The notes under the pieces are model-generated. The model worked only from the letters and a program-made list of their open reading frames with translations. It did not search any database and was not told where the DNA came from. Shown here piece by piece: positions 53,129-64,000 of a stretch of 64,000 nucleotides of DNA (position 1 is its first letter; each line of letters opens with the position of its first letter). Source of the DNA: an uncultured Bifidobacteriaceae bacterium (lineage in GTDB: Bacteria > Actinomycetota > Acidimicrobiia > IMCC26256 > JAENVU01); assembly GCA_964639075.1 (NCBI GenBank), contig CAZXCB010000001.1, positions 9,602-73,601 on the forward strand, read 5' to 3'. A program made the translations under genes and the position numbers.

Positions 53129-54145
53129 TCACCGCGCGAGGCGCGCTCCGGTCACCGCCGTCAGCGCGGCCGTCGCCGCCGGGATCAACACCCCGAACGG
53201 GTGGTCGCCACCCGCGCCGTCGCGTGCCTCGATGCCGGCGGCCTCGAGGAGGATCCGGGTGCCGTGCAGCGCGCGGTACCAGTCCAGGTGGGCCAGGTCG
53301 TGCCCCGGTGCGAGCGCTCGATACCGGGCCTCGAACCGCCGCGCGACGCGAGCCCCGACGCGACGGATGACCGCCGCGAGTGGCGCCGGCGCGGCGAGCG
53401 GCGGGTTGGCGAGGAGGAGCGCGGTGAACGCGACGTCGTAGGCCGGCTCGGCCCGGATGGACGCGGTCCAGTCGATCACCGTGACCTCACCGGTCTCCTG
53501 CACGAGGAGGTTGAACGGATGCAGATCGCCATGACAGATCACGGTCGGGCCTTCGAGGGGACGACGCCCGGTGAGCGCGCGCAGCGCACCGACGAGGTCG
53601 GACCGACCGAGCGCCTCGGCGCCTTCGCCGAAGTGGTGCAGCAGCTGGTCGACGCTCCACGCCGCCGTCGGCGCGGCCGCGCGCACCGCGTCGCTCACCG
53701 GCCCGGGATCGAGCGCGTGCAACGCCGTCATCGGCGCGGCGAGCTGCCCCGGCAGCCGCGACAGCAGTCGTGGCGCCCGGCGCAGCGCGCCGATACCGTC
53801 GAGGTCGCCGAGCGGCGGTGCCCCGACCGCGAAGTCCATCACCGACCAGGTGCCTCCGAGCTCCGCGTCGGCCGGTCCGATCAACCTGACGTGCGGGGTC
53901 GGGCACCCGAGCTCGGCCACGACGTGCTGCACGGCGAGCTCCTTCGCTCCCATCGTGGCGTCGGGCGCGATCCGGAACACCAGCTCGGTGGGCACGTCGG
54001 CCGGCTGGCCGCGGAGCCGGATCCGGTACATCGAGGCCCAGAACCCACCGGTGAGCGCGACAGGGTCCGACAGGAGGGACACCCCCGGCCAGGCGTCCGC
54101 CACCCGCGCCTCGATCAGACCTGCGATATCGGATTTGAGCGTCAC
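53129..54145 (-). CDS. Aminoglycoside/antibiotic phosphotransferase (APH) family kinase
   Basis: In frame within ORF 53129..54289. GTG at 54143-54145 (MTLKSDIAGLIEAR...). Catalytic loop ICHGDLHPFNLLV followed by VIDW. Confidence 0.75.
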   Translation of the reverse strand: MTLKSDIAGLIEARVADAWPGVSLLSDPVALTGGFWASMYRIRLRGQPADVPTELVFRIAPDATMGAKELAVQHVVAELGCPTPHVRLIGPADAELGGTWSVMDFAVGAPPLGDLDGIGALRRAPRLLSRLPGQLAAPMTALHALDPGPVSDAVRAAAPTAAWSVDQLLHHFGEGAEALGRSDLVGALRALTGRRPLEGPTVICHGDLHPFNLLVQETGEVTVIDWTASIRAEPAYDVAFTALLLANPPLAAPAPLAAVIRRVGARVARRFEARYRALAPGHDLAHLDWYRALHGTRILLEAAGIEARDGAGGDHPFGVLIPAATAALTAVTGARLAR

Positions 54146-54181
54146 GGTCTTTACCGTAACAGTGATATCTGGTATCGTCCA
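54144..54181. promoter_or_regulatory. Compact divergent control region: dyad ACGGT-CTTT-ACCGT plus candidate overlapping back-to-back promoters
   Basis: Plus strand: TTTACC (54150-55), 17 nt, TATCGT (54173-78), then 7 nt to the MerR ATG. Minus strand: TGGACG (54176-81), 17 nt, TACGGT (54153-58), then 7 nt to the APH GTG. Promoter assignment is by eye only. Confidence 0.4.
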
Positions 54182-54185
54182 CCCG

Positions 54186-54959
54186 ATGCCCGCCACTTCT
54201 CCAGCTGGTTCCTCACACGCCGCCACCCCGTCCGCCACCGGGTGGACGATCGACGAGCTCGCGGGCCGGGCCGGCCTGCCGGTCCGCACGATCCGGGAGT
54301 ACCAGACCCTCGGGGTGCTGCCACCACCGCGCCGGGAGGGCCGCGTCGGACGGTACGGCTCGAGCCACCTCCGCCGGCTCGAGCTGATCGCACGCCTGCG
54401 CGCTCGCGGCTACTCGCTCGCCGGCATCGGCGACCTGCTCGGACGCTGGCGCGACGGCGCGGACCTCGGCGAGGTGCTCGGGCTCGAACCCGACCAGCTC
54501 GTGCACATCGACGAACCGGGGGCGCCGGCCACCCTCGAGCAGCTCTGCTCGCTCCTGCCGACGATGCTCCCCGAGCATCTCGACGCCCTCGAAGCCACCG
54601 GTGTGGTCGAGCGGTGTGGCCCCGACCACTACTGCATCCCGAGCCCGTCGCTGCTCCAGCTCGCGAGAGAGGCGATGGCCGCCGGGCTCGGACCCGACGA
54701 CGTGCTCACGCTGCTCGGCGCGATCCGTCGCGCCGCCGACACCGTCGTCGACGACGTGGTGCGCCAGCTCGACCGGCTGCCCGCCACTGCCACCGCGGAC
54801 ACCACGGCGGCGTTCCTCCAGCGCGGTCGGGGTCTCCTCGCCCACGGTGTCGGTCGGCTCACCCTCCATCGGATCGGCCGACGCCTCGGCATCGCCGACG
54901 AAGCCGACGTCGATCCGACGATCCGTCGCATCGTCGAACCCCGGGGCACCACCGCATGA
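54186..54959 (+). CDS. MerR-family transcriptional regulator with long C-terminal domain
   Basis: In frame within ORF 53571..54959 (codon 206), ATG at 54186. HTH sequence WTIDELAGRAGLPVRTIREYQTLGVLPPPRREGRVGRYGSSHLRRLELIARLRARGYSLAGI. Confidence 0.85.
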   Translation: MPATSPAGSSHAATPSATGWTIDELAGRAGLPVRTIREYQTLGVLPPPRREGRVGRYGSSHLRRLELIARLRARGYSLAGIGDLLGRWRDGADLGEVLGLEPDQLVHIDEPGAPATLEQLCSLLPTMLPEHLDALEATGVVERCGPDHYCIPSPSLLQLAREAMAAGLGPDDVLTLLGAIRRAADTVVDDVVRQLDRLPATATADTTAAFLQRGRGLLAHGVGRLTLHRIGRRLGIADEADVDPTIRRIVEPRGTTA

Positions 54960-55801
54960 CGGTCTCGGAGAATCTCGAACAGTTCGAATCCTGGAACGGC
55001 GACAGCGGGAACCGCTGGGTCGCGCGCGCGGACGAACGCGATCAGGTCCTCGCACCGGTGGCCGACGCCCTCTTCGCGGCCGCCGCCCTCACGCCGGGAT
55101 GCCGGGTCCTCGACCTCGGGTGCGGCTGCGGGGCGACCACGCTCCGGGCCGCGGCGCTCGTCGGCGCCGCGGGATCGACGACGGGGATCGACCTCTCGGA
55201 GCCGATGCTCGACGTCGCGCGTCGGCGCGCGCTCGACCAGCGCGCCGACACGGACCTGGTGCACGGCGACGCGCAGACGTATCCGTTCGCGTCCGGGTCG
55301 GTCGACGTGGTCATCGGTCGCTTCGGGACGATGTTCTTCTCCGACCCGGTCGCCGCCTTCGCCAACATCGCCACGGCACTTCGACCCGGCGGCCGCCTCG
55401 TCCTCGCCACGTGGCAGCCGCTCGGAGCCAACGAATGGCTGCTCGTGCCGGGTGCTGCACTCCTCGCCCACACCCACCTGCCCGACCAGCCGCCGGGTGG
55501 ACCGGGGATGTTCGCGCAGTCGGATCCCGACACCGTCACCACGGTGCTGCGCGACGCCGGATTCACCGACATCGCGCTCGAGGCCACCGAGGTCACCTTC
55601 GTCGTCGGGCCGACGATCGACGCGGCGGTCGAGTACCTCGCCGACAGCGGGCCGGGACGACTCCTCCTCGACGCCATCCCCGAGGGGCCGGCCCGCGAGG
55701 CCGCACTCGCCGACGTCGGCGCGGCGCTCGTGCCGCATCTCCACGGATCCGGCGTCGAGCTCCGCGGCGGCATCTGGCTCGTCACGGCGCGCCGACCCTG
55801 A
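54956..55801 (+). CDS. Class I SAM-dependent methyltransferase
   Basis: In frame within ORF 53201..55801. ATG at 54956 overlaps the MerR stop (ATGA). Motif I is VLDLGCGCGATT. Confidence 0.85.
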   Translation: MTVSENLEQFESWNGDSGNRWVARADERDQVLAPVADALFAAAALTPGCRVLDLGCGCGATTLRAAALVGAAGSTTGIDLSEPMLDVARRRALDQRADTDLVHGDAQTYPFASGSVDVVIGRFGTMFFSDPVAAFANIATALRPGGRLVLATWQPLGANEWLLVPGAALLAHTHLPDQPPGGPGMFAQSDPDTVTTVLRDAGFTDIALEATEVTFVVGPTIDAAVEYLADSGPGRLLLDAIPEGPAREAALADVGAALVPHLHGSGVELRGGIWLVTARRP

Positions 55802-55845
55802 ACGGGAGAGACTCGGGGCGCAACGAGCCTGCGAGAGGAGCAGTC

Positions 55846-56211
55846 ATGAACGTTCGGATGGGTCTCGTGTTGGACTGCGGTGAGCCCGAAGCGTTGGCGG
55901 AGTTCTGGGCGGCGGCGCTCGGATACACCAACGTCGGGAGTGCCGGCAGCTACGTGATGCTCCTGCCGGTCGAGGGCGATGGACCCCAGCTGCTGTTGCA
56001 GAAGGTGCCGGAGCCGAAGGCGGGCAAGAACCGCATGCACCTCGACATCCACGTGGCGGACATCGAGGCCGAGGCGGCGCGCTTGACCGCGCTGGGTGCC
56101 CGTCGGGTCGCGGTGGAGCCGATGGGCGAGCACGGGACCCATTGGGTGTTGATGGCCGACCCGGAGGACAACGAGTTCTGCGTGTGCGACTCCGGCGCGG
56201 GCACCGACTGA
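55846..56211 (+). CDS. VOC/glyoxalase-like domain protein
   Basis: In frame within ORF 54601..56211. ATG at 55846 is preceded by GAGAGGAG. Sequence GLVLDCGEPEALAEFWAAALGY...RMHLDIHV...HWVLMADPEDNEFCV. Confidence 0.8.
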   Translation: MNVRMGLVLDCGEPEALAEFWAAALGYTNVGSAGSYVMLLPVEGDGPQLLLQKVPEPKAGKNRMHLDIHVADIEAEAARLTALGARRVAVEPMGEHGTHWVLMADPEDNEFCVCDSGAGTD

Positions 56212-56237
56212 GGCGCACGCGTCTCCAGGACGCGGAC

Positions 56238-56726
56238 TCAGTCGTGCGCGTTCGAGCCGTGGTCCATGAGCTGGGCGTCGAACCAGTCGTGGAGCGCGGC
56301 GACCAGGTCGGCGTCGTCGGTGCGGTACGTGATCCGGGCGCCGCGTGGGATCGTCGAATACCGGACCTGCACCCGCGGCGCGCCACGCCGCAGCGCGGCG
56401 AGGCCGGGCATCCGCATGCCGTGGATCGCCATCGGATCCGTGAAGTCCCCGGCCGCGAAGCGCGTCGCCTCCTTCCGGAGGTGCTCCCGGACGAGGCGGA
56501 GCTGGTGTCGGTCCGTCGGATCCTTCACGACCACTCGCTGCACCCCACCGGTGGAGGTCCGGTGGAAGACGTGCGTCGTCTTCGCCTGGTCGAAGGGCAT
56601 CACCGCGGCGCCGCGCGCTTCGACCTCGTCCTGGCGGGTGGTCGTCGCGTCCGAGCCCTGCCCGCAGGCGGACACCAGGGCGAGGAGCGGCGCGACCGCG
56701 AGCAGCCAGGGCGTCCGTGGTCTCAT
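56238..56726 (-). CDS. Lipoprotein, unknown function (His-containing, possible metal-related)
   Basis: ORF 56238..56798. ATG at 56724-56726 gives MRPRTPWLLAVAPLLALVSA/C (lipobox). Conserved-looking blocks GDFTDPMAIHGMRMPGL and HDWFDAQLMDHG. Confidence 0.7.
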   Translation of the reverse strand: MRPRTPWLLAVAPLLALVSACGQGSDATTTRQDEVEARGAAVMPFDQAKTTHVFHRTSTGGVQRVVVKDPTDRHQLRLVREHLRKEATRFAAGDFTDPMAIHGMRMPGLAALRRGAPRVQVRYSTIPRGARITYRTDDADLVAALHDWFDAQLMDHGSNAHD

Positions 56727-56769
56727 GCCGCGGCGGTCAGCCCGGTGTCCACCGCCGGGGGGCGGGCCG

Positions 56770-57168
56770 TCATGCGACGGTCTCCGAGACTGCGCCACCG
56801 AGCGCAGCGAGTGCCGCGGTGAGTCGGTCGGCGGCTTCGGCTGCGAGCCGGGTGAACGCGGGGTCGGTGATCAGCTCGCGGGGGTCGATGACCGCGACGT
56901 GGGTCCCGGAGCCATCGGGCTCGAGCACGACGTTGCACGGCAGCAGCAGCGCGACCGACGGGTCGATCTCCAGGGCCTCCTGGGCGAACGCCGGGCTGCA
57001 GGCTCCCAGGATCTTGAGCGGGGTGCGGTCGACGCCCAGCGCCGCATGCAGGTTCGCGGCGACGTCGATCTCGCTCACGACCCCGAAGCCTTCGGTCGCG
57101 AGCGCAACCCGTGTCGCCGCCTCCACCTCGTCCATCGGGCGGTCGACCGTGGTCTGAATGCTGTGCAT
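56770..57168 (-). CDS. DUF302-domain protein
   Basis: Last 132 codons of ORF 56770..59481. ATG at 57166-57168 is preceded by GAGGAG. Sequence VALATEGFGVVSEIDVAANL...PLKILGACSPAFA...LLLPCNVVL. Confidence 0.85.
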   Translation of the reverse strand: MHSIQTTVDRPMDEVEAATRVALATEGFGVVSEIDVAANLHAALGVDRTPLKILGACSPAFAQEALEIDPSVALLLPCNVVLEPDGSGTHVAVIDPRELITDPAFTRLAAEAADRLTAALAALGGAVSETVA

Positions 57169-57229
57169 CGTGGCGCTCCTCGTCGTGATCGGTCGCCCCT
57201 CGGTTTGCCCGGGCTCGATGCCGGGAACA

Positions 57230-57245
57230 ATACCCCATGGGGTAT
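57230..57245. promoter_or_regulatory. Perfect 16-bp palindrome ATACCCCATGGGGTAT (CsoR/RicR-type operator candidate)
   Basis: Read directly, in the DUF302/MMPL divergent region. Overlaps a minus-strand TATTGT (-10-like, 57227-57232). Confidence 0.6.
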
Positions 57246-57262
57246 GGTTCCCTCCAGTCGCT

Positions 57263-57278
57263 ATACCCCATAGGGTAT
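57263..57278. promoter_or_regulatory. Second operator copy ATACCCCATAGGGTAT (arms ATACCC/GGGTAT)
   Basis: Read directly, 33 bp centre-to-centre from the first copy. Overlaps a plus-strand TAGGGT (-10-like, 57271-57276), 25 nt before the MMPL ATG. Confidence 0.6.
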
Positions 57279-57300
57279 CCACCTCGATCTGGGAGCCACG

Positions 57301-59484
57301 ATGCAGACCACACCACGACCCGCTGCGCCCGCACCGGCCGAGCTTCACCAGCCGTCGGCGCCGCCGGATCCGAAGGCGCTGTTCTCCCGGCTCGCGGCCG
57401 CGATGGCCCGCCATCGCCGCGCCGTCATCGTGGTCTGGCTGCTCGTCTCCTTCGTGGCCGCACCGCTCGCGCTGACCCTCACGGGAGCCCTCTCGGGAGC
57501 CGGGTGGGAAGCGCAGGGGTCGACGGCTCAGCAGGTGCGCGACGAGCTGCGGCGGGACTTCCCTGCGCTCGGCGCGGAGAACCCGGTCGTCGTCTACTCC
57601 CAGCGCGCGCCGATCGCCTCCGACCCGACCGGACTCCGGACGTTGGTCGATGCGCTCGCCGACGCGCCCCGCGCGCGGTCGGTCGCCGATCCCCTCGCGC
57701 TGCCCGCCGACGCCGGCCTCATCGCTCGCGACGGCCGCACCGCGATCGTCCCGGTGGAGCTCGCCGTCGGTGCCGACGCGACGAGGCCGACCGCGGCGGG
57801 CACGCTCGGCGACTACGTCGCCGGGCTCGCGCTCGCACCGGGCGCGCAGGCCGAGGTCACCGGTGAGTGGCCGGTGTGGAGCGACTTCAACACGGTGAAC
57901 GAGGAGGCGCTGCACAAGGCCGAGCTCCTGAGCGGCCTCCCGACGCTCGTCCTGTTGTTCCTCGCGTTCGGCTCGTTGATCGCGGCGGGCATCCCCCTCC
58001 TGCTCGCGCTCGCCGGGATCGCGGTCGGGTTCGCCGCGCTCCATCTCCTGAGCCTGGTCACACCGCTGTCGGTGTGGTCGATGAACTTCTCGATGATGAT
58101 CGGGCTCGCTGTCGGCATCGACTACAGCCTGTTCATCGTCAGCCGCTACCGTGAGGAACGCGTCGAGGGCAAGGATGCGATCGCGGCGATCGAGAACACC
58201 CTGTCGACCGCGGGCAAGGCCGTGTTCCTCTCGGCCCTCACGGTGGTGCTCGCGTTGTCCGCCGTGTTCCTCGTGCCCATCATGGTGTTCCGTTCGATGG
58301 CGCTCGGGATGATCCTCTCGGTCCTGGCCGTGGCCCTCGCGTCGCTCACGCTCCTCCCCGCGGTGCTCGTCGCACTCGGCGACCGGGTGCTCGTGACCCG
58401 CGGCAAGCAGGATCCCGACATCGTCGCCGAGAGCCGCTGGGCGCGGTGGACGAGCATCTCGCTGCGCCGTCCGGGGACCGTCCTCGCGATCGGGCTGCTG
58501 CTCCTCGGCCTGCTCGTCCTCCCCGCGGTCGGGATGCATCTCGGGATGCCCGGCGCCCGCGTCGTCGACCGGGGTCGCACGAGCCGCGACGGCTACGAGC
58601 TCCTCGTGAAGTCGTTCGGACCCGGCGCGGCCGCGCCCGCGTTCGTGACGGTACCGGCCACGGACGCTGCTGCGGTCGTGCGCATCGCCGCCTCGGATCC
58701 GGCCGTCGTCGACGCCCGGGTCGTGAGTCGCCCCGCGGCGAACGGGAGGACGGTCGTGCGGGTCATCGGGTCGACCGCGGTCGACGACTCGCACACCGCC
58801 GCGCTCGTGCACCGCCTGCGCGACCGGTTGGATCGTGCCGTGCCCGCCGCTCGCGTCGGTGGACCCGCCGCGCAGAACGCCGACCTGACGTCGGTGCTCA
58901 CCGGGCGCGCGCCGGTCGCGATCGGCGTGATCCTGCTCATGGCCTTCGTGTTGCTGCTCGTCGTGTTCCGCAGTCTCGCGATCGCCGTCGCGTCGATCCT
59001 CATGAACCTCGTGACCGTGGGCGCGGCGTTCGGCTTCGCGACCCTCGTGTTCCAGCGGGGTGTCGGCACGGGCCTGCTCGGCATCGAGCATCAGGGATTC
59101 GTCGACGCCTGGGCGCCGCTGTTCTTCTTCGCGCTGCTGTTCGGGCTCTCGATGGACTACCAGCTGTTCCTGCTGGCGGCGATCCGCGAGCGCTACGAGG
59201 CGACCGGCGACACGAAGCAGGCCATCCGCGAGGGCATCGCCCGGACCGGCCGACCCATCACCAACGCGGCGCTCATCATGATCGTGGTGTTCATCGCGTT
59301 CGGCGTCACCGGTCCGATCCCACCGACGGAGCTCGGCCTCACCCTGGCCGTGGCCGTGCTGCTCGACGCGACCGTCGTCCGCGTGCTGCTCGTCCCGGCG
59401 ACGATGGCCCTGCTCGGCGAGCGCAACTGGTACCTGCCGAGGTGGCTCGGCCGGATCCTCCCCGTGGTGAGGTTCAGCCACTGA
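57301..59484 (+). CDS. MMPL-family (RND superfamily) transporter
   Basis: ORF 57301..59484. ATG is preceded by GGGAG. Two 6-TM bundles, each with a periplasmic loop. MNFSMMIGLAVGIDYSLFIVSRYREE and FGLSMDYQLFLLAAIRERY motifs. Confidence 0.9.
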   Translation: MQTTPRPAAPAPAELHQPSAPPDPKALFSRLAAAMARHRRAVIVVWLLVSFVAAPLALTLTGALSGAGWEAQGSTAQQVRDELRRDFPALGAENPVVVYSQRAPIASDPTGLRTLVDALADAPRARSVADPLALPADAGLIARDGRTAIVPVELAVGADATRPTAAGTLGDYVAGLALAPGAQAEVTGEWPVWSDFNTVNEEALHKAELLSGLPTLVLLFLAFGSLIAAGIPLLLALAGIAVGFAALHLLSLVTPLSVWSMNFSMMIGLAVGIDYSLFIVSRYREERVEGKDAIAAIENTLSTAGKAVFLSALTVVLALSAVFLVPIMVFRSMALGMILSVLAVALASLTLLPAVLVALGDRVLVTRGKQDPDIVAESRWARWTSISLRRPGTVLAIGLLLLGLLVLPAVGMHLGMPGARVVDRGRTSRDGYELLVKSFGPGAAAPAFVTVPATDAAAVVRIAASDPAVVDARVVSRPAANGRTVVRVIGSTAVDDSHTAALVHRLRDRLDRAVPAARVGGPAAQNADLTSVLTGRAPVAIGVILLMAFVLLLVVFRSLAIAVASILMNLVTVGAAFGFATLVFQRGVGTGLLGIEHQGFVDAWAPLFFFALLFGLSMDYQLFLLAAIRERYEATGDTKQAIREGIARTGRPITNAALIMIVVFIAFGVTGPIPPTELGLTLAVAVLLDATVVRVLLVPATMALLGERNWYLPRWLGRILPVVRFSH

Positions 59485-59556
59485 CGTCCGAGGGACGTTC
59501 GGCCCTGGTCGGCACCCGACCCCAGATACGACAGTGCGTAGGAGGAGGTGTTGGAG

Positions 59557-59799
59557 ATGATGTGGAACAACGGTTGGGGCGGCGGTGAGTGGGTCGCGAT
59601 GTCGATCATGATGGTGGCGTTCTGGAGCATCGTGGTCGTCGCCATCGTGCTGCTCGTGCGAGCAACGAGGTCCGACTCACACCCCTCGCCGACGCCCACG
59701 GGTGCCGATGCTCGGAGGATCCTCGACGAGCGGTTCGCCCGCGGCGAGATCGAAGCGGAGGAGTACACCCGACGGCGAGATCTTCTCGGTCGGTCGTAG
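59557..59799 (+). CDS. SHOCT-domain small membrane protein
   Basis: Within ORF 59548..59799. ATG at 59557 lies 8 nt after GGAGGAGG. One TM helix, then the SHOCT motif ARRILDERFARGEIEAEEYTRRRDLL. Confidence 0.75.
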   Translation: MMWNNGWGGGEWVAMSIMMVAFWSIVVVAIVLLVRATRSDSHPSPTPTGADARRILDERFARGEIEAEEYTRRRDLLGRS

Positions 59800-59803
59800 C
59801 ACC

Positions 59804-60334
59804 GTGCGTTCGCGGAACGTCACGATCGTCGCGGTCGGGTTCGTGGTGGTGCTCGCCGCACTCTCGACGGTCGTCATCGGGGGGTTCGCGAGCGGTTTCG
59901 CGCGTTCCGATTGCGCACCGCGGCGCGTGTCCGGGACGGGTGTTCGGGTGGCGTTGATGGATGCCGGCGGCTCGATGATGGGGCGGGTGCAGGGCGGGAC
60001 CATGCGCCTGGCCGCGGACCGCAGCCGCGTGGAGCAGGGTCTCGTCACGTTCGTCGCGGCGAACGTCGGATCGATCGGCCACGAGCTGCTAGTGCTTCGA
60101 CTGCCTCGCCGACAGATCGTCGGGACGAGGCCGATCGGAGCCGACGGCGCGGTGGACGAGCGGGGCGATGTCGGCGAGGCCTCGAACGACTGCGCGCGCG
60201 GGACCGGCGACGGCATACCGCCCGGCCGCGCGAGCTGGACGAGCCTGCAACTCCGGCGCGGGAGCTACGAGCTGCTCTGCAACCTCCCCGGCCACTACGC
60301 GGCCGGCATGTACACCCGGTTGACCGTCACGTAG
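59804..60334 (+). CDS. Membrane-anchored cupredoxin-like (type-1 copper site) protein
   Basis: In frame within ORF 59702..60334. GTG at 59804 lies 4 nt after the SHOCT stop. N-terminal TM helix. Ligand pattern is H (GHELLV) ... C-x2-P-G-H-x4-M (CNLPGHYAAGM). Confidence 0.7.
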   Translation: MRSRNVTIVAVGFVVVLAALSTVVIGGFASGFARSDCAPRRVSGTGVRVALMDAGGSMMGRVQGGTMRLAADRSRVEQGLVTFVAANVGSIGHELLVLRLPRRQIVGTRPIGADGAVDERGDVGEASNDCARGTGDGIPPGRASWTSLQLRRGSYELLCNLPGHYAAGMYTRLTVT

Positions 60335-60361
60335 CAGTCCCCGGCGCGGGTCGGAGGCCGG

Positions 60362-61285
60362 CTATGCGGGGCAGCGTCCGAGCACCGCGATCAGCTGGAC
60401 CGCCGAGGCGACCGAGAGCCCGAGCATCGCGGCCAGACCCGTCATGGCGATTGCGGAGTAGACGAGCCGGGAACGAGCGAGACCGCTGGGAGCGGTCGAG
60501 CGGCGCCGCCCGAGCCGGTCGAGGCGTCGTTGGATCGCCCGCTTCGTGGGGGTCGTCCCGTCGATCGCACCGATGCGTGCCAGCGCCGACCGGAGACCGG
60601 CCACTCGATCTCGGGAGCCGGCGGTGCTGACCTCGTCCGCCCAGTGCTCGATCGCGTCCCGCAACGCCCGCGTGCTGGCCCGCACCGCCGGGATCCAGCC
60701 GAGCACCCGGTCGACGGCCGCGGCGATGACGAGGTAGTGCCGATGGCGGAGCCGATGGTGCGCCATCTCGTGACGGATCACGGCATGCACCTCGGCGTCG
60801 TCCAGGTTGGACACGAGCCCTTCGGAGAGGACGATCTGGGGTGCGTCACCGGAGACGGCGACCGCGAGCAGGCGCGTGCTCGGCACGATGACGACGTCGA
60901 ACTCCGCGACCTGGCGGTGGTTGCCGATGAACGCGTCGACCCGAGCGTTGCGGAGACCTCGGATCGCGAGCGCCACCGCGCCCGCCAAACGGGCGGCGAC
61001 GACCGCGGCCACGATCAGGACCGCCGCCGCGAGGTAGACGCCGCCGAGGGGCAGGGCATGGACCGCGTCGTCGCAGAAGCCGGTGAGACCCGACCCGTCC
61101 GCGACGTGCAACACCGCCGGCGCACCCCAGAGGACGAGTCCGGTCACGACGAGCGCCAGCCCCAACGCCAGGGAGTTGCGACACGACCGGGCCCATTGCG
61201 CGACGGTCAGTCCGCTCGGTGCGGAGGACATGGCGCCCGGGAGGACGAGGAACAGCAGACCGAGACCGATGAGGGCGAGGGTCAT
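60362..61285 (-). CDS. M56-family (BlaR1-like) membrane metalloprotease without a penicillin-sensor domain
   Basis: Last 307 codons of ORF 60362..61714. ATG at 61283-61285 overlaps the BlaI stop (ATGA). TM helices and the zinc motif VIRHEMAHHRLRH. Confidence 0.8.
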   Translation of the reverse strand: MTLALIGLGLLFLVLPGAMSSAPSGLTVAQWARSCRNSLALGLALVVTGLVLWGAPAVLHVADGSGLTGFCDDAVHALPLGGVYLAAAVLIVAAVVAARLAGAVALAIRGLRNARVDAFIGNHRQVAEFDVVIVPSTRLLAVAVSGDAPQIVLSEGLVSNLDDAEVHAVIRHEMAHHRLRHRHYLVIAAAVDRVLGWIPAVRASTRALRDAIEHWADEVSTAGSRDRVAGLRSALARIGAIDGTTPTKRAIQRRLDRLGRRRSTAPSGLARSRLVYSAIAMTGLAAMLGLSVASAVQLIAVLGRCPA

Positions 61286-61662
61286 GCGCGCCGCGGCCTT
61301 CGCGTGAGCGCGCGACGCAGCTCCGCTCGCGTCTCCGGATCGATCGACTCGACGAAGTGCACGAGCGCGGAACGCGAATCGCCCGCGGCGGCGAGCAGCG
61401 CCGACATGCGTTCGGCGGCGTACTCCGATCGAGTCGCGAACGGGTGGTACTCGAACGCGCGTCCCCGACGGCGCCGGTCGAGCCGGCCCTTCTCCCACAG
61501 CCGGGACATCGTCGTCATGACCGTCGTGTACGCAAGCGTGCGACGACGGCCGACCGCTTCGTGCACCTCGCCCGGTGTCAGCCAGCCGTCCTGGTCCCAC
61601 AGCACGTCGAGGACCATCGCCTCGAGCTCCCCACGACCGAGGGGGCGGCGCTTCGCTGCCAT
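61282..61662 (-). CDS. blaI: BlaI/MecI/CopY-family transcriptional repressor
   Basis: ORF 61282..61716, ATG at 61660-61662. Winged helix sequence LGRGELEAMVLDVLWDQDGWLTPGEVHEAVGRRRTLAYTTVMTTMSRLWEKG. No C-terminal CxC metal motif. Confidence 0.85.
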   Translation of the reverse strand: MAAKRRPLGRGELEAMVLDVLWDQDGWLTPGEVHEAVGRRRTLAYTTVMTTMSRLWEKGRLDRRRRGRAFEYHPFATRSEYAAERMSALLAAAGDSRSALVHFVESIDPETRAELRRALTRRPRRA

Positions 61663-61714
61663 CCGTGCATCGTCGCGGCCGCGCCGCCGCGCCGCAAGCA
61701 CCGCCGACTTGCAC

Positions 61715-61753
61715 AACGGTTGTGCTACGACCTAACGTCGTAGCACAACCGTT
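61715..61753. promoter_or_regulatory. Perfect 39-bp inverted repeat (17-bp arms, 5-bp spacer) containing TACGAC-N5-GTCGTA; candidate BlaI operator
   Basis: AACGGTTGTGCTACGAC-CTAAC-GTCGTAGCACAACCGTT read directly. Lies between the blaI start (61662, -) and the NlpC/P60 start (61843, +). Confidence 0.65.
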
Positions 61754-61754
61754 C

Positions 61755-61791
61755 GGAGGCGCGGCTTTCGCCGTGCCTCCGTGACGTCACG
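61755..61791 (+). promoter_or_regulatory. 11-bp-stem hairpin followed by the 12-bp palindrome CGTGACGTCACG
   Basis: GGAGGCGCGGC-TTTC-GCCGTGCCTCC (one G.U pair) at 61755-61780. CGTGACGTCACG at 61780-61791. Both read directly. Confidence 0.45.
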
Positions 61792-61842
61792 AACCAGAGC
61801 TCCGCAAGGACGAACAGCCGCCGACCGGCACAGGGAGTCCCC

Positions 61843-62943
61843 ATGAAGCGCCGATTCGCACGGTTGACAGCGCTCGCTGTCGCGGGCGCGAGCGTCATCT
61901 CGATCGTCCCACCGATCGCCGGTGCCGAACCGATCGACTCCAAACGCGCCGAGGCCACGCGCCTCCAGCAGCAGATCGACGCGAACGGCATGCGGATCGC
62001 CGCCCTCGGCGAGCGCTACAACGGAGCCCAGCTCGCCTACGAGCAGGCCCGTCAGCAGATCGAGATCGCGCAACAGCGCCTCGCCGCGGCCCGCGAGCGG
62101 AAGCAACGAATCGAGGACATCCTCCGGCGTCGCGCTGTCGCGCTCTACCAATCCGTGGGATCGTCGACGCCGCTCGAATCGCTGGATGCCCGCGACCTGA
62201 ACGAGCGCGCGACCCGCACGGCGTACACCGCGGCCGCGGGCGAGCGCGACTCCGAGCTCGTCGCGGAGCTGGTTCGCGCCCGCGAACGGTTCAACGCGGA
62301 CCGCCGCGTCGCGCAGCGCCGTCTGCAGGACGCGCAGCGCCAGCGCGACGAGGCCCGCCAGGCCCAGAACCAGATCCAAGCCGCGAATGCACAGGAACAG
62401 CGGCTGCTCTCCAAGGTCAAGGGCGAGATCGCGACGTTGATGGCCGAACAGCAGCGTCAGCGTGACGAGGCGGCGCGCCGTTCGGCGCTCGCCCGCGTCA
62501 CCCGCTCCCCCGGGTCATCGGCCGGGCGCAGTCCCGCGAGATCCGGTGTGGACCCGGGCACGGTCGGCGGCAACTTCCCGCAGGTGCCGGTCTCCGGGCG
62601 CGTCGCCGCAGTCATCGCGTACGCCCGTGCACAGATCGGCAAGCCCTACGTCTACGCGACCGCCGGTCCGAACACCTTCGACTGCTCGGGCCTGACGATG
62701 ATGGCCTGGCGTCAGGCGGGCGTCGGGATGGCCCATTTCTCGGGCTCGCAGTTCAACAGCTTCCCCCACGTGGCGATCTCGAACCTCCAACCCGGAGACC
62801 TCGTCTTCAAGGGACCCGGCGGCGTCGACCACGTCGCGCTCTACATCGGCGGCGGCATGCAGATCGCGGCGACCCACACCGGCAGCTACGTCAAACTGCA
62901 ACCGCTCGGCTCCGGACTCAGCGGAGCCGTTCGTCCCGGCTGA
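61843..62943 (+). CDS. Secreted NlpC/P60 (C40) peptidoglycan endopeptidase with long N-terminal coiled coil (RipA-like)
   Basis: ORF 61843..62943. Signal peptide, about 200 aa of Q/R/E/A heptad-like sequence, then a catalytic domain with FDCSGL and VDHVALYIG. Confidence 0.9.
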   Translation: MKRRFARLTALAVAGASVISIVPPIAGAEPIDSKRAEATRLQQQIDANGMRIAALGERYNGAQLAYEQARQQIEIAQQRLAAARERKQRIEDILRRRAVALYQSVGSSTPLESLDARDLNERATRTAYTAAAGERDSELVAELVRARERFNADRRVAQRRLQDAQRQRDEARQAQNQIQAANAQEQRLLSKVKGEIATLMAEQQRQRDEAARRSALARVTRSPGSSAGRSPARSGVDPGTVGGNFPQVPVSGRVAAVIAYARAQIGKPYVYATAGPNTFDCSGLTMMAWRQAGVGMAHFSGSQFNSFPHVAISNLQPGDLVFKGPGGVDHVALYIGGGMQIAATHTGSYVKLQPLGSGLSGAVRPG

Positions 62944-63000
62944 CCCTGGCGGAGCTCCCGGGTCGATTCCGGCACTGAGCTGCTCGGAGGACGTCGAAGC

Positions 63001-64000
63001 GTGAAGCGCGGATCGACCCTGGAGACCGTCGTCATGGACACGCGCGGCCTGCATTGGGCGAGCTCGAAGGCGCGTGTCGAGGCAGTGCTCGGTCGCCGGC
63101 CGGGGGTGGAGGCGGTCGACGCCAATCCGGTGGCCCAGACCGCGACGGTGACGTTCGATCCCGCGTCGACCGACGTCGCGGAGCTCGTCGGCTGGATCCG
63201 CGAGTGCGGGCTGCACTGCCGCGGGCAATCCGTGCCCGGGCACGTGTGCGATCCGTTGGCCGCACCCCATGAGGACGGTGCCGCACCGCGCTCGCCGCAC
63301 GAGGTCATGGGACACGGCGGGCACGGCGCGATGTCGATGGAGTCGATGGTCGCGGACATGCGGCGGCGCTTCCTCGTCGCAGCGATCTTCTCCGTGCCGA
63401 TCGTGCTCTGGTCGCCCATCGGACGCGAGGTGCTGTCGTTCGACGTCCCGGCGCCGTTCGGGCTCCGCGACGACGTCTGGTCCCTGATCCTCAGCCTGCC
63501 GGTGATCCTCTACTCGTGCTCGATCTTCTTCGTCGGCGCGTACCGGGCGCTCCGCGCGCGGACGCTCGACATGATGGTCCTGGTCGCCGTGGCGGTCGGC
63601 ACCGGTTGGGGCTACTCGGTCATCGTGACGGCCACCGGTGGCGGCGATGTCTTCTACGAGGCCGCGAGCGTGCTCGCCGCGTTCGTGCTCCTCGGCCACT
63701 GGTTCGAGATGCGCGCCCGCGGCGGCGCGAACGATGCGATCCGGACCCTGCTCGACCTCGCGCCGCCGCTGGCCCTCGTCGTCCGCGACGACCACACCGT
63801 CGAGATCCCGACCGCGGACGTGGTCGTCGGCGACCTGCTCCTCGTACGCCCGGGAACCAAGATCGCAGTCGACGGAGTCGTCGAGGCGGGCGAGGGCGAC
63901 GTCGACGAGTCGATGGTGACGGGCGAGAGCCTCCCGGTCCACAAGGTCGCGGGCTCCGAGGCGGTCGGGGCCACGATCAACACGAACGGCACCTTGCGGA
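63001..64000 (+). CDS. Heavy-metal (probably copper) P1B-type ATPase, 5' partial (continues beyond window end)
   Basis: Open frame from GTG 63001 (8 nt after GGAGGA) to the window end; absent from the ORF track because it has no stop. HMA-like fold without Cxx[28 protein letters not shown] helices, and the actuator motif [11 protein letters not shown]. Confidence 0.85.

Follow-up and report, generated by a model that had tools for sequence, protein, structure and literature searches.

The known targets of CstR-type sensors are few: some cytoplasmic enzymes that detoxify sulfur species, and a sulfite exporter. Their regulons, such as the cst operon of Staphylococcus aureus, SCO0618-0621 of Streptomyces coelicolor and those of the actinomycete 'cluster 3', use paired 16-bp ATACC-N6-GGTAT operators at divergent promoters. 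In S. coelicolor the regulator ScCsoR has two such sites per promoter and controls a persulfide dioxygenase (PDO)-rhodanese fusion, TauE and a rhodanese (PMC7533328). Two-cysteine proteins of the CsoR family, including an actinomycete cluster of 3175 members, are persulfide sensors, and Cu(I) binds them without releasing them from DNA (PMC8643695). In the PetR/PetP system of Synechocystis, copper-dependent proteolysis of the repressor derepresses plastocyanin. Here we analyse a 64-kb stretch of DNA (the window), whose region at positions 56238-64000 resembles both of these systems. We suggest, with a probability of about 0.6, that the region consists of two independent regulatory modules placed side by side by rearrangement. 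Module A, in which lipoprotein and DUF302 genes diverge from an MMPL transporter gene, would be sulfur-sensed, and module B, in which a BlaI-type repressor and an M56-type protease face a NlpC/P60 peptidoglycan endopeptidase, would be copper-triggered in a PetR/PetP-like way.

The analysis is computational only and uses the letters of the window and the loci of relatives. The gene set was obtained from reading of open reading frames (ORFs) together with Pfam and NCBIfam. The GC content of the region is 71%, and the relatives of the MMPL protein point to Acidimicrobiia as its placement. We retrieved 79 loci around MMPL relatives, about 33 of them orthologs (58-87% identity) and the remainder paralogs (33-42%). 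The number of paralog loci compared is 46; the ortholog loci examined for neighbouring genes number 38, with the window counted in. Loci of relatives are labelled L0xx: L097 (92%), L096 (89%) and L032 (87%) have the closest MMPL relatives, by identity of MMPL, and L080-L086 the closest relatives of the M56 protein (64-57% identity). The co-occurrence patterns of M56 rest on about 5 loci and those of MMPL on 38. The preliminary description took the region for one candidate copper supercluster of ten consecutive genes. The features are as it described, and copper proteins (a cupredoxin and a Cu-type P1B ATPase) are present, but the genes are nine, their order is not conserved and the regulators seen beside MMPL in relatives are of the two-cysteine type.

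The division into two modules comes from synteny. L097, L096 and L032 all keep the lipoprotein and DUF302 genes leftward of the boxes and MMPL rightward of them, with no BlaI/M56 nearby. Neither BlaI nor M56 is found in any of the 79 MMPL loci by tblastn or with an iterative jackhmmer hidden Markov model, and other window genes are rare there. The loci L080-L086 keep NlpC/P60 divergent from BlaI and M56. L080 also keeps the SHOCT-cupredoxin pair beside M56-BlaI-NlpC/P60, without MMPL; in this genome the MMPL ortholog, preceded by its own pair of boxes, is on the same contig at a distance of 165 kb. Synteny of all the genes is thus not conserved in relatives, an outcome that the preliminary description itself had named as a refutation, and, since both gene sets occur there separately, the window joins two units. 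On this comparison module A comprises lipoprotein-DUF302 and the divergent MMPL (56238-59484), and module B the SHOCT-cupredoxin pair and M56-BlaI with the divergent NlpC/P60-ATPase (59557-64000). We read their adjacency as a lineage-specific rearrangement, not as a conserved supercluster.

Module A contains the following features:

56238-56726, minus strand: lipoprotein of 162 aa with a signal peptide and cysteine (lipobox LVSAC, read directly)
56770-57168, minus strand: DUF302 protein of 132 aa (PF03625, E 1e-18), first gene of the leftward operon
57230-57245: box 1, ATACCCCATGGGGTAT, putative CsoR-family operator
57263-57278: box 2, ATACCCCATAGGGTAT, putative CsoR-family operator, spaced 33 bp from box 1, with the MMPL start codon 23 bp downstream
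57301-59484, plus strand: MMPL-family RND transporter of 727 aa (PF03176, E 2e-77) with an MmpL3-like core

Both boxes, noticed already as CsoR-type boxes between the DUF302 and MMPL genes, are perfect matches to ATACCC-N4-GGGTAT. These are the only matches in the 64 kb, even if 2 mismatches are allowed. Their chance expectation is 0.32, and at least 2 matches occur in 6 of 100 shuffles; the reality of the boxes is better shown by conservation than by these shuffle statistics. TACCC-N4-GGGTA boxes are present within 600 bp upstream of MMPL in 30 of the 33 ortholog loci having upstream DNA, and in only one of the 46 paralog loci. In the ortholog loci they are mostly paired, 20-34 bp apart, and the spacing of 33-34 bp recurs in L032, L042, L088, L090, L095 and L096. 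When a box is found about 400 bp upstream of MMPL, the gene in between is that of a CsoR-family repressor. Judged by sequence and conservation, we take the boxes to be genuine CsoR-family operators. Box 1 is 62 bp from the DUF302 start codon and is the centre of a 30-bp palindrome (57223-57252, GGGAACAATACCCCA followed by TGGGGTATGGTTCCC). Box 2 has no such extension, and therefore the boxes may differ in affinity or partner.

No csoR gene is found in the window, as noted before. A six-frame motif scan, hmmsearch of the six-frame ORFs with a profile built from three relatives' regulators (which covered the 79 loci and the window) and tblastn with one relative's regulator all detect no CsoR-family gene there. 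Among the 38 orthologs, including the window, which itself is without one, 21 have a CsoR-family gene within a few kb of MMPL. All 21 of these regulators are of the two-cysteine x-C-x-C type, with the pattern ...(R/K)(D/E)C(R/K)(D/E)(V/I)...(G/S/N)(L/M)(T/S/V/I)xC..., and lack the Cu(I)-ligand histidine. In the alignment to 4m1p, 4adz and CstR 7mq1 they have Gly, Ser or Asn at the position of that histidine and Asp before the first cysteine, where CsoR has Tyr or Asn; at both positions they resemble CstR 7mq1. A canonical Cys-His-Cys CsoR gene is present in L042 (50-647), where it immediately follows the 3' end of a gene for a P-type ATPase and is about 9 kb from MMPL, which has its own two-cysteine paralog and a divergent multicopper oxidase gene. 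It follows that both types of the CsoR family coexist in one genome.

The genes next to the boxes also point to sulfur. A CsoR-family (cstR-like) gene is found within about 4.5 kb in all three of L097, L096 and L032, and TauE and a PDO-like gene in L097 and L032. Downstream of MMPL, L097 has genes for YgaP-like membrane and LPG_synthase_TM-like proteins and L032 has one for an LPG_synthase_TM-like protein; L096 has a convergent CMD gene. The cstR-like gene is followed by DUF302 in L028 and L090, and the lipoprotein occurs together with DUF302, MMPL and cstR-like genes in L032, L088, L090, L096 and L097. MMPL operons of relatives hold cstR-like, YgaP-like, PDO-rhodanese and rhodanese genes. A wider search for boxes, proposed earlier, gives only the two in the window, and in the relatives it leads to sulfur genes together with multicopper oxidase genes. 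The same boxes are located upstream of PDO-rhodanese, TauE, YgaP-like transmembrane (TM), thioredoxin and CMD genes in relatives' loci, and those before PDO-rhodanese, TauE or rhodanese genes are in L009, L013, L027, L028, L032, L088 and L097. In the window itself, tblastn finds no PDO-rhodanese, TauE or rhodanese gene. Since two-cysteine regulators are encoded beside MMPL and the same boxes stand at reactive-sulfur genes, the likely signal is reactive sulfur. Hence, by analogy with the relatives, the boxes of the window are probably served by a CstR-type regulator encoded elsewhere.

The likeness to the CstR regulons includes the paired operators at divergent promoters, the two-cysteine, His-free autoregulated repressor (in the relatives) and the boxes before PDO-rhodanese, TauE, rhodanese and thioredoxin genes. 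The differences are that the window has neither the classical enzymes nor the regulator, its core being MMPL, DUF302 and the lipoprotein, and that LPG_synthase_TM-like and YgaP-like TM proteins often join here, as do cupredoxins and multicopper oxidases. In literature searches we found no description of MMPL, DUF302, the lipoprotein, LPG_synthase_TM-like or YgaP-like TM proteins as CstR targets, and full-text searches gave no paper that links CstR- or CsoR-type control to MMPL. DUF302 also belongs to the 'SUL' sulfur module of an Arthrobacter plasmid (PMC6305408). By analogy, we interpret module A as a regulon of the CstR type in which MMPL, DUF302, the lipoprotein and the flippase-like and YgaP-like proteins are members not reported before.

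The Cu(I)-responsive CsoR/RicR regulons of actinobacteria share the operator shape and have a lipoprotein and an oxidase or cupredoxin among their targets. They differ in the regulator, since those of the relatives lack the His ligand and the Tyr before the first cysteine, and in the copper ATPase, which is not box-controlled here. The ATPase is a canonical CsoR target, and no box is found at 62944-63000, before the ATPase gene, nor anywhere near it. The box motif is common to CstR-type proteins and is therefore not diagnostic of a Cu(I) CsoR/RicR regulon. The separation of CsoR from CstR boxes by their core sequence was attempted and failed: boxes before cstR-like, PDO, TauE, MMPL and multicopper oxidase genes are alike.

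The MMPL protein resembles MmpL3, its closest solved structure (E 2e-56), in the Pfam MMPL domain, the twelve predicted TM helices, the two periplasmic domains and the D-Y proton-relay pairs of TM4 and TM10 (GIDYSLF and SMDYQLF, read directly). Unlike MmpL3, it is shorter (727 aa), has no C-terminal domain, contains six Met and four Trp of its own, and stands under a putative CsoR-family operator instead of lipid-synthesis regulators. The six Met (261, 265, 328, 333, 337 and 416) are invariant in the orthologs and not present in the paralogs or MmpL3; invariant Met is a feature typical of Cu(I) carriers. They are at the outer ends of TM4, TM6 and TM7 according to the helix boundaries of an AlphaFold2 (AF2) model of low confidence (shallow alignment, pLDDT 61), which we used for helix boundaries only. 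Predicted secondary structure assigns them to the beginnings of TM4 and TM6 and to a part of TM7 close to its end. These TM ends are taken as periplasmic by analogy with the MmpL3 topology. We note also four ortholog-specific invariant Trp (W69, W190, W193 and W259), an invariant C-terminal F-x-H (F725, H727) and the complete absence of cysteine. More than 4000 MMPL homologs are found at E<=1e-50; the 120 matches listed, largely from Acidimicrobiia and other environmental assemblies, have 77-100% identity. A link between MMPL proteins and metal, thought at first to be undescribed, is on record: TbD1 mmpS6/mmpL6 of Mycobacterium bovis affects the copper response (PMC9048740).

The lipoprotein has no match in Pfam or NCBIfam and has at least 425 homologs. 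Source records often name the family 'aspartate carbamoyltransferase', which is probably a propagated misannotation. The conserved residues include M43-P-F45, H52, H82, H102, D155 and H156, and also Asp/Glu. In the AF2 model (pLDDT 90.5) a long N-terminal helix precedes two beta-beta-alpha units; the model gives no fold match in the PDB with Foldseek. The conserved lipoprotein residues, the Met of MMPL, the cupredoxins and the multicopper oxidases together suggest a soft, thiophilic substrate.

In L027 (7780-7990) a box, TACCCTGGAGGGTA, directly precedes an ORF of 65 aa that is rich in cysteine (MCRQITCSKCKKPTWAGCGAHIEQVL...CQC) and has no Pfam match. By its sequence its product could be a small metal- or sulfur-binding protein of the same regulon.

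Module B and the sites in it are as follows:

59526-59542: degenerate BlaI-type site, TACGAC-N5-GTAGGA (TACGACAGTGCGTAGGA), just upstream of or overlapping the SHOCT ribosome-binding region
59557-59799, plus strand: small SHOCT membrane protein of 80 aa (PF09851, E 5e-6, just under cutoff)
59804-60334, plus strand: membrane-anchored type-1 cupredoxin of 176 aa, sulfocyanin-like (SoxE 21.2 bits vs cutoff 21)
60362-61285, minus strand: sensor-less M48/M56 membrane metalloprotease of 307 aa with the HEMAH motif (M48 match above cutoff, M56 below)
61282-61662, minus strand: BlaI/CopY-family repressor of 126 aa (PF03965, E 9e-25), whose stop codon overlaps the M56 start by 4 bp
61715-61753: perfect 39-bp palindrome with 17-nt arms and a 5-nt spacer, the presumed BlaI operator, between blaI and the NlpC/P60 gene
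61754-61842, plus strand: leader of the NlpC/P60 gene, with a hairpin (61754-61781, 12-nt arms) directly after the operator and then about 60 nt
61843-62943, plus strand: RipC-like coiled-coil NlpC/P60 peptidoglycan endopeptidase of 366 aa (PF00877)
63001-64000, plus strand: P1B-type ATPase, of which the N-terminal 333 aa are present before the window ends, with HMA and E1-E2 domains and a His/Met-rich stretch

The sensor-less M56 protease, its BlaI repressor and the 39-bp operator facing NlpC/P60 are present as first described, and the divergent operon pair is conserved. The Pfam matches of the M56 protein are M48, M56 and SprT only, all in the HEXXH region. No penicillin-binding (transpeptidase-like) sensor domain is found on it, and its C-terminus is about 15 residues beyond TM4. 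Across 11 homologs, the most distant of which have 44% identity, H60, C71, D72 and H76 of the TM2-TM3 loop and C305 are invariant, together with H172, E173, H176 and H177 of HEMAHH, where position 174 varies between M, V and A. By analogy with the BlaR1 topology, we place the TM2-TM3 loop and the C-terminus outside the cytoplasm. The repressor has no Cys and therefore lacks the metal site of CopY; its best NCBIfam match is CopY_TcrY, with 32 bits vs a cutoff of 122. A tblastn search of M56 against plasmids gave no match, and a metagenome scan with the M56 alignment gave one uninformative locus of 1.2 kb.

The operator core, GCTACGAC-CTAAC-GTCGTAGC at 61723-61745, reads TACGAC-N5-GTCGTA and thus contains GAC-N5-GTC. 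The motif is kept in the spacer between NlpC/P60 and BlaI of all the relatives L080-L086. Its second copy is found in two lineages just after M56, before a cupredoxin_1 gene or operon: in L084 at 2785, 62 nt before cupredoxin_1, and in L080 at 10936, before a small His/Cys membrane ORF that is followed by cupredoxin_1. The small ORF of L080 (10960-11370), which was uncalled, encodes about 130 aa (MLRPPTTGACRRPRISLLAIVLLLAAGVLVMHGGG...CH...HHAH), looks like a His/Cys-bearing membrane protein and has no counterpart in the window.

In the window the cupredoxin belongs to the SHOCT-cupredoxin pair. Its ligands H...C-x4-H-x4-M are readable (HELLV ... CNLPGHYAAGM), and its Copper-bind match is under the cutoff. 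SHOCT is 66% identical to that of L080, which is located in the BlaI/M56 block, and the cupredoxin is 53% identical to that of L080; a cupredoxin is also found downstream of MMPL in L024 and L054. The degenerate site before SHOCT has a homologous site in L080 (12724-12740, TACGACGATACGTAGGA), kept though the upstream genes differ. By its sequence it is a possible internal operator, and SHOCT-cupredoxin may therefore answer to module B besides the read-through from MMPL.

On the other side of the 39-bp operator, the NlpC/P60 protein, previously termed RipA-like, is indeed a coiled-coil NlpC/P60 endopeptidase, but the RipC model fits its full length better: it aligns over 3-358 of 362 with 97 bits vs a cutoff of 425, and RipA gives 70 bits vs 625. 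We therefore call it RipC-like by sequence and do not name it an ortholog. Its counterpart in L080, which is encoded at the corresponding divergent place, has 71% identity. The link of a metal-type switch to a cell-wall hydrolase, also put forward before, is plausible in light of the conserved BlaI/M56 operator facing the endopeptidase. Within the leader, the stretch of about 60 nt (GAACCAGAGCTCCGCAAGGACGAACAGCCGCCGACCGGCACAGGGAGTCCCC-ATG) is near-invariant across genomes whose proteins are only 60-70% identical, with counterparts in L080 (9441-9540, reverse complement) and L084 (1293-1385, reverse complement). The leader has no match in Rfam, and a c-di-AMP (ydaO) riboswitch was rejected for lack of such a match. 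It could be a promoter with an element of the untranslated region or a cis-regulatory RNA of a new type.

The P1B ATPase and its His/Met-rich N-terminal stretch stand, and 57 nt, not 58 as first given, separate the ATPase gene from that of NlpC/P60, without a terminator-like site. The best NCBIfam subfamily match of the ATPase is ATPase-IB1_Cu. Its HMA-like domain lacks CxxC and reads GLHWASS; TM4, where P1B-1 (CopA) copper ATPases have a CPC motif, is beyond the window end. In L080 a CopZ-like HMA gene with CxxC follows NlpC/P60, and YHS-domain genes are nearby in L080 and L084. Orthology of the ATPase to the CopB-type pump of L080 was rejected, given 34% identity and a different N-terminal architecture. 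The scan of the region for sigma-70 promoters and terminators gave no match, as expected for an actinobacterium with 71% GC, and the Rfam search of 56000-64000 gave chance-level matches only.

Module B shares with PetR/PetP the BlaI/CopY-family repressor without the CopY Cys, the four-TM HEXXH protease of about 300 aa without a sensor domain, the overlapping stop and start codons, the operator core GAC-N5-GTC and, in relatives, a cupredoxin under the operator. The comparison with PetP uses its published description. PetR/PetP is cyanobacterial with petE/petJ as targets, whereas module B is actinobacterial and is associated with an endopeptidase, CopZ/P1B ATPase and cupredoxins. CopY/TcrY differ from it by the C-terminal CxCx4CxC and the TACAnnTGTA cop box, in contrast to the Cys-free repressor and the TACGAC-N5-GTCGTA operator here. 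The BlaI/BlaR1 beta-lactam sensor has the same kind of winged-helix Penicillinase_R repressor and HEXXH membrane protease, which are presumably co-transcribed here, given the 4-bp gene overlap; its C-terminal sensor domain is absent here. CenIR of Clostridioides difficile is the same kind of sensor-less BlaIR pair and represses a peptidoglycan hydrolase, which is an amidase there vs NlpC/P60 here. Another such pair is BlaI/BlaR (Rv1846c/Rv1845c) of Mycobacterium tuberculosis, and module B differs from both pairs by the copper proteins in its regulon; the M. tuberculosis BlaI operator resembles TACGAC-N5-GTCGTA. By these analogies, module B would be a PetRP-like or CenIR-like system of actinobacteria that differs from both in its putative metal site and in its targets. 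We give even odds that it is a copper-triggered proteolytic BlaI/M56 switch, the chief alternative being some envelope signal.

From the observed gene content, operators, operator conservation and synteny patterns we infer a mechanism in which both effectors, the cleavage step, the co-transcription and the MMPL substrate are our proposals. In module A a CsoR-family tetramer on the two boxes would repress the leftward lipoprotein-DUF302 operon and the rightward MMPL gene, with read-through into SHOCT-cupredoxin. The repressor, of the two-cysteine CstR type, would leave the DNA on persulfidation or cross-linking by reactive sulfur species, not on Cu(I). The products would then act in the envelope: MMPL as a proton-driven exporter, the secreted His/Met/Asp-rich lipoprotein and DUF302. 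Our best guess for the MMPL substrate is Cu(I) or a copper-(poly)sulfide product, which may arise when sulfide meets envelope copper.

In module B, BlaI bound to the 39-bp palindrome would repress its own blaI-M56 operon and the divergent operon of the RipC-like endopeptidase and the P1B ATPase, and possibly SHOCT-cupredoxin too, via the weak site. M56 would detect an extracytoplasmic signal, most likely copper, via His60/Cys71/Asp72/His76 and Cys305, and would then cleave the repressor.

Several points weigh against two modules with these two signals. The operator sequence, as far as the cores can be compared, does not discriminate CsoR from CstR, and, with no regulator in the window, we infer its CstR type from relatives. 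The same boxes are also upstream of multicopper oxidase genes in L027 and L042, and mmcO of the RicR regulon carries such boxes. The window, L024, L032, L054, L088 and L096 have a cupredoxin gene that adjoins MMPL or belongs to an operon under box control. The Met enrichment in MMPL is 6 of 15 Met vs 98 of 727 positions overall (Fisher p=0.009). Taken together, the boxes at multicopper oxidase genes, the cupredoxins and the MMPL Met fit a copper role for module A. As for module B, the two Met of the PetP TM2-TM3 loop are not conserved, and the window protein has His/Cys/Asp/His there; the M56 homologs found number only about 12, and their contexts come from four distinct lineages; beside M56 at the 51% identity level, no more than a fragment of NlpC/P60 is encoded; and M56 could respond to an envelope cue, as CenIR does.

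The last point leads to the first alternative, in which BlaI/M56 is a CenIR-like system of envelope homeostasis or a beta-lactam-related system like M. tuberculosis BlaI/BlaR, it serves mainly to restrain the endopeptidase, and the copper genes are coincidental. The sensor-less CenIR, which represses a peptidoglycan hydrolase, is a precedent for it, mycobacterial BlaI affects cell-division genes, and NlpC/P60 is the most conserved partner of the pair. However, the second conserved operator stands before a cupredoxin gene or operon in two lineages, a CopZ-like gene or a Cu-ATPase follows NlpC/P60, and the M56 protein has the invariant His/Cys/Asp/His of the outer loop and the C-terminal Cys and no penicillin-binding domain. 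With this evidence we consider such a system rather unlikely.

The second alternative, which we regard as unlikely, shares the regulatory part of the two-module reading but commits to a copper substrate. In it a two-cysteine regulator senses reactive sulfur or Cu-S species and the products handle envelope copper: Cu(I) or copper sulfide would be extruded by MMPL from the outer leaflet, oxidised by the cupredoxin or multicopper oxidase and bound by the lipoprotein. Its rationale is that sulfide reduces and mobilises copper. It agrees with the presence of sulfur genes and copper proteins in the same regulon, with the ortholog-specific Met at the predicted periplasmic TM ends, where MmpL3 has no Met, with the conserved His/Met/Asp of the lipoprotein and with the island of PDO-rhodanese, ArsR-rhodanese and DsrE genes within 10 kb of the copper block in L080. 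On the other hand, confidence in the MMPL model is low, Met is enriched only modestly, and a cupredoxin or multicopper oxidase accompanies MMPL in only about 8 of the 38 loci; to our knowledge there is no precedent for an MMPL metal exporter.

We consider quite improbable a single supercluster whose boxes are bound by a Cu(I) sensor of the CsoR/RicR type, encoded elsewhere, and whose nine genes form a coordinated copper/envelope response: the boxes fit the operators of CsoR/RicR no less than those of CstR, a type-1 cupredoxin is in the MMPL operon with the Cu-type ATPase 3.5 kb away, multicopper oxidase genes have the same boxes in L027 and L042, and there is the methionine ring in MMPL and the MmpL6-copper link in M. 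bovis, but 21 of 21 regulators beside MMPL orthologs have no copper-ligand His, the one true CsoR seen (L042) adjoins a P-type ATPase and not MMPL, the window ATPase has no box, the nine-gene order is not conserved and the commonest box-linked neighbours are reactive-sulfur genes.

Upstream of the region, at 53129-56211, the window encodes an APH-like kinase on the minus strand and a MerR-family regulator, a methyltransferase and Glyoxalase_6 on the plus strand. These genes are syntenic in L080 (59-70% identity), and the block adjoins the copper block in both, with inverted relative orientation. We note that the first part of L080 (1-4300) contains PDO-rhodanese, an ArsR(HTH_5)-rhodanese fusion regulator, two DsrE genes and an MFS transporter. 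Less than 10 kb separate this sulfur island from the BlaI/M56 block, and about 5.4 kb separate it from blaI; hence, copper and sulfur-stress genes are neighbours in L080 too, under another sulfur-sensor family.

Returning to the two modules, we suggest that the finding gives a testable inducer for an orphan subfamily of the abundant MMPL family, which is almost always box-controlled and often in an operon with the sensor, and likewise for DUF302 and for the lipoprotein family of at least 425 members. It points to an export or envelope step that is missing from models of reactive-sulfur defence, and to an overlap with copper. With the BlaI/M56 module, the copper-triggered PetRP mechanism would occur in actinobacteria as well as in cyanobacteria and would be linked to a RipC-like hydrolase. 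The module also bears on which signals are detected by those 'BlaR' proteins, a majority, that are sensor-less. More speculatively, the CstR-type regulon of Acidimicrobiia may have gained an envelope branch for copper-sulfide chemistry, a doubtful proposal in which the members would be the Met-lined MMPL, the His/Met-rich lipoprotein, DUF302, the flippase-like and YgaP-like proteins and the blue-copper and multicopper oxidase proteins. If true, it would directly couple sulfide stress to copper handling and provide the first metal/sulfur substrate for an MMPL transporter. The branch would then stand beside a second sensor, the actinobacterial PetRP-like switch, which would tie copper to peptidoglycan remodelling.

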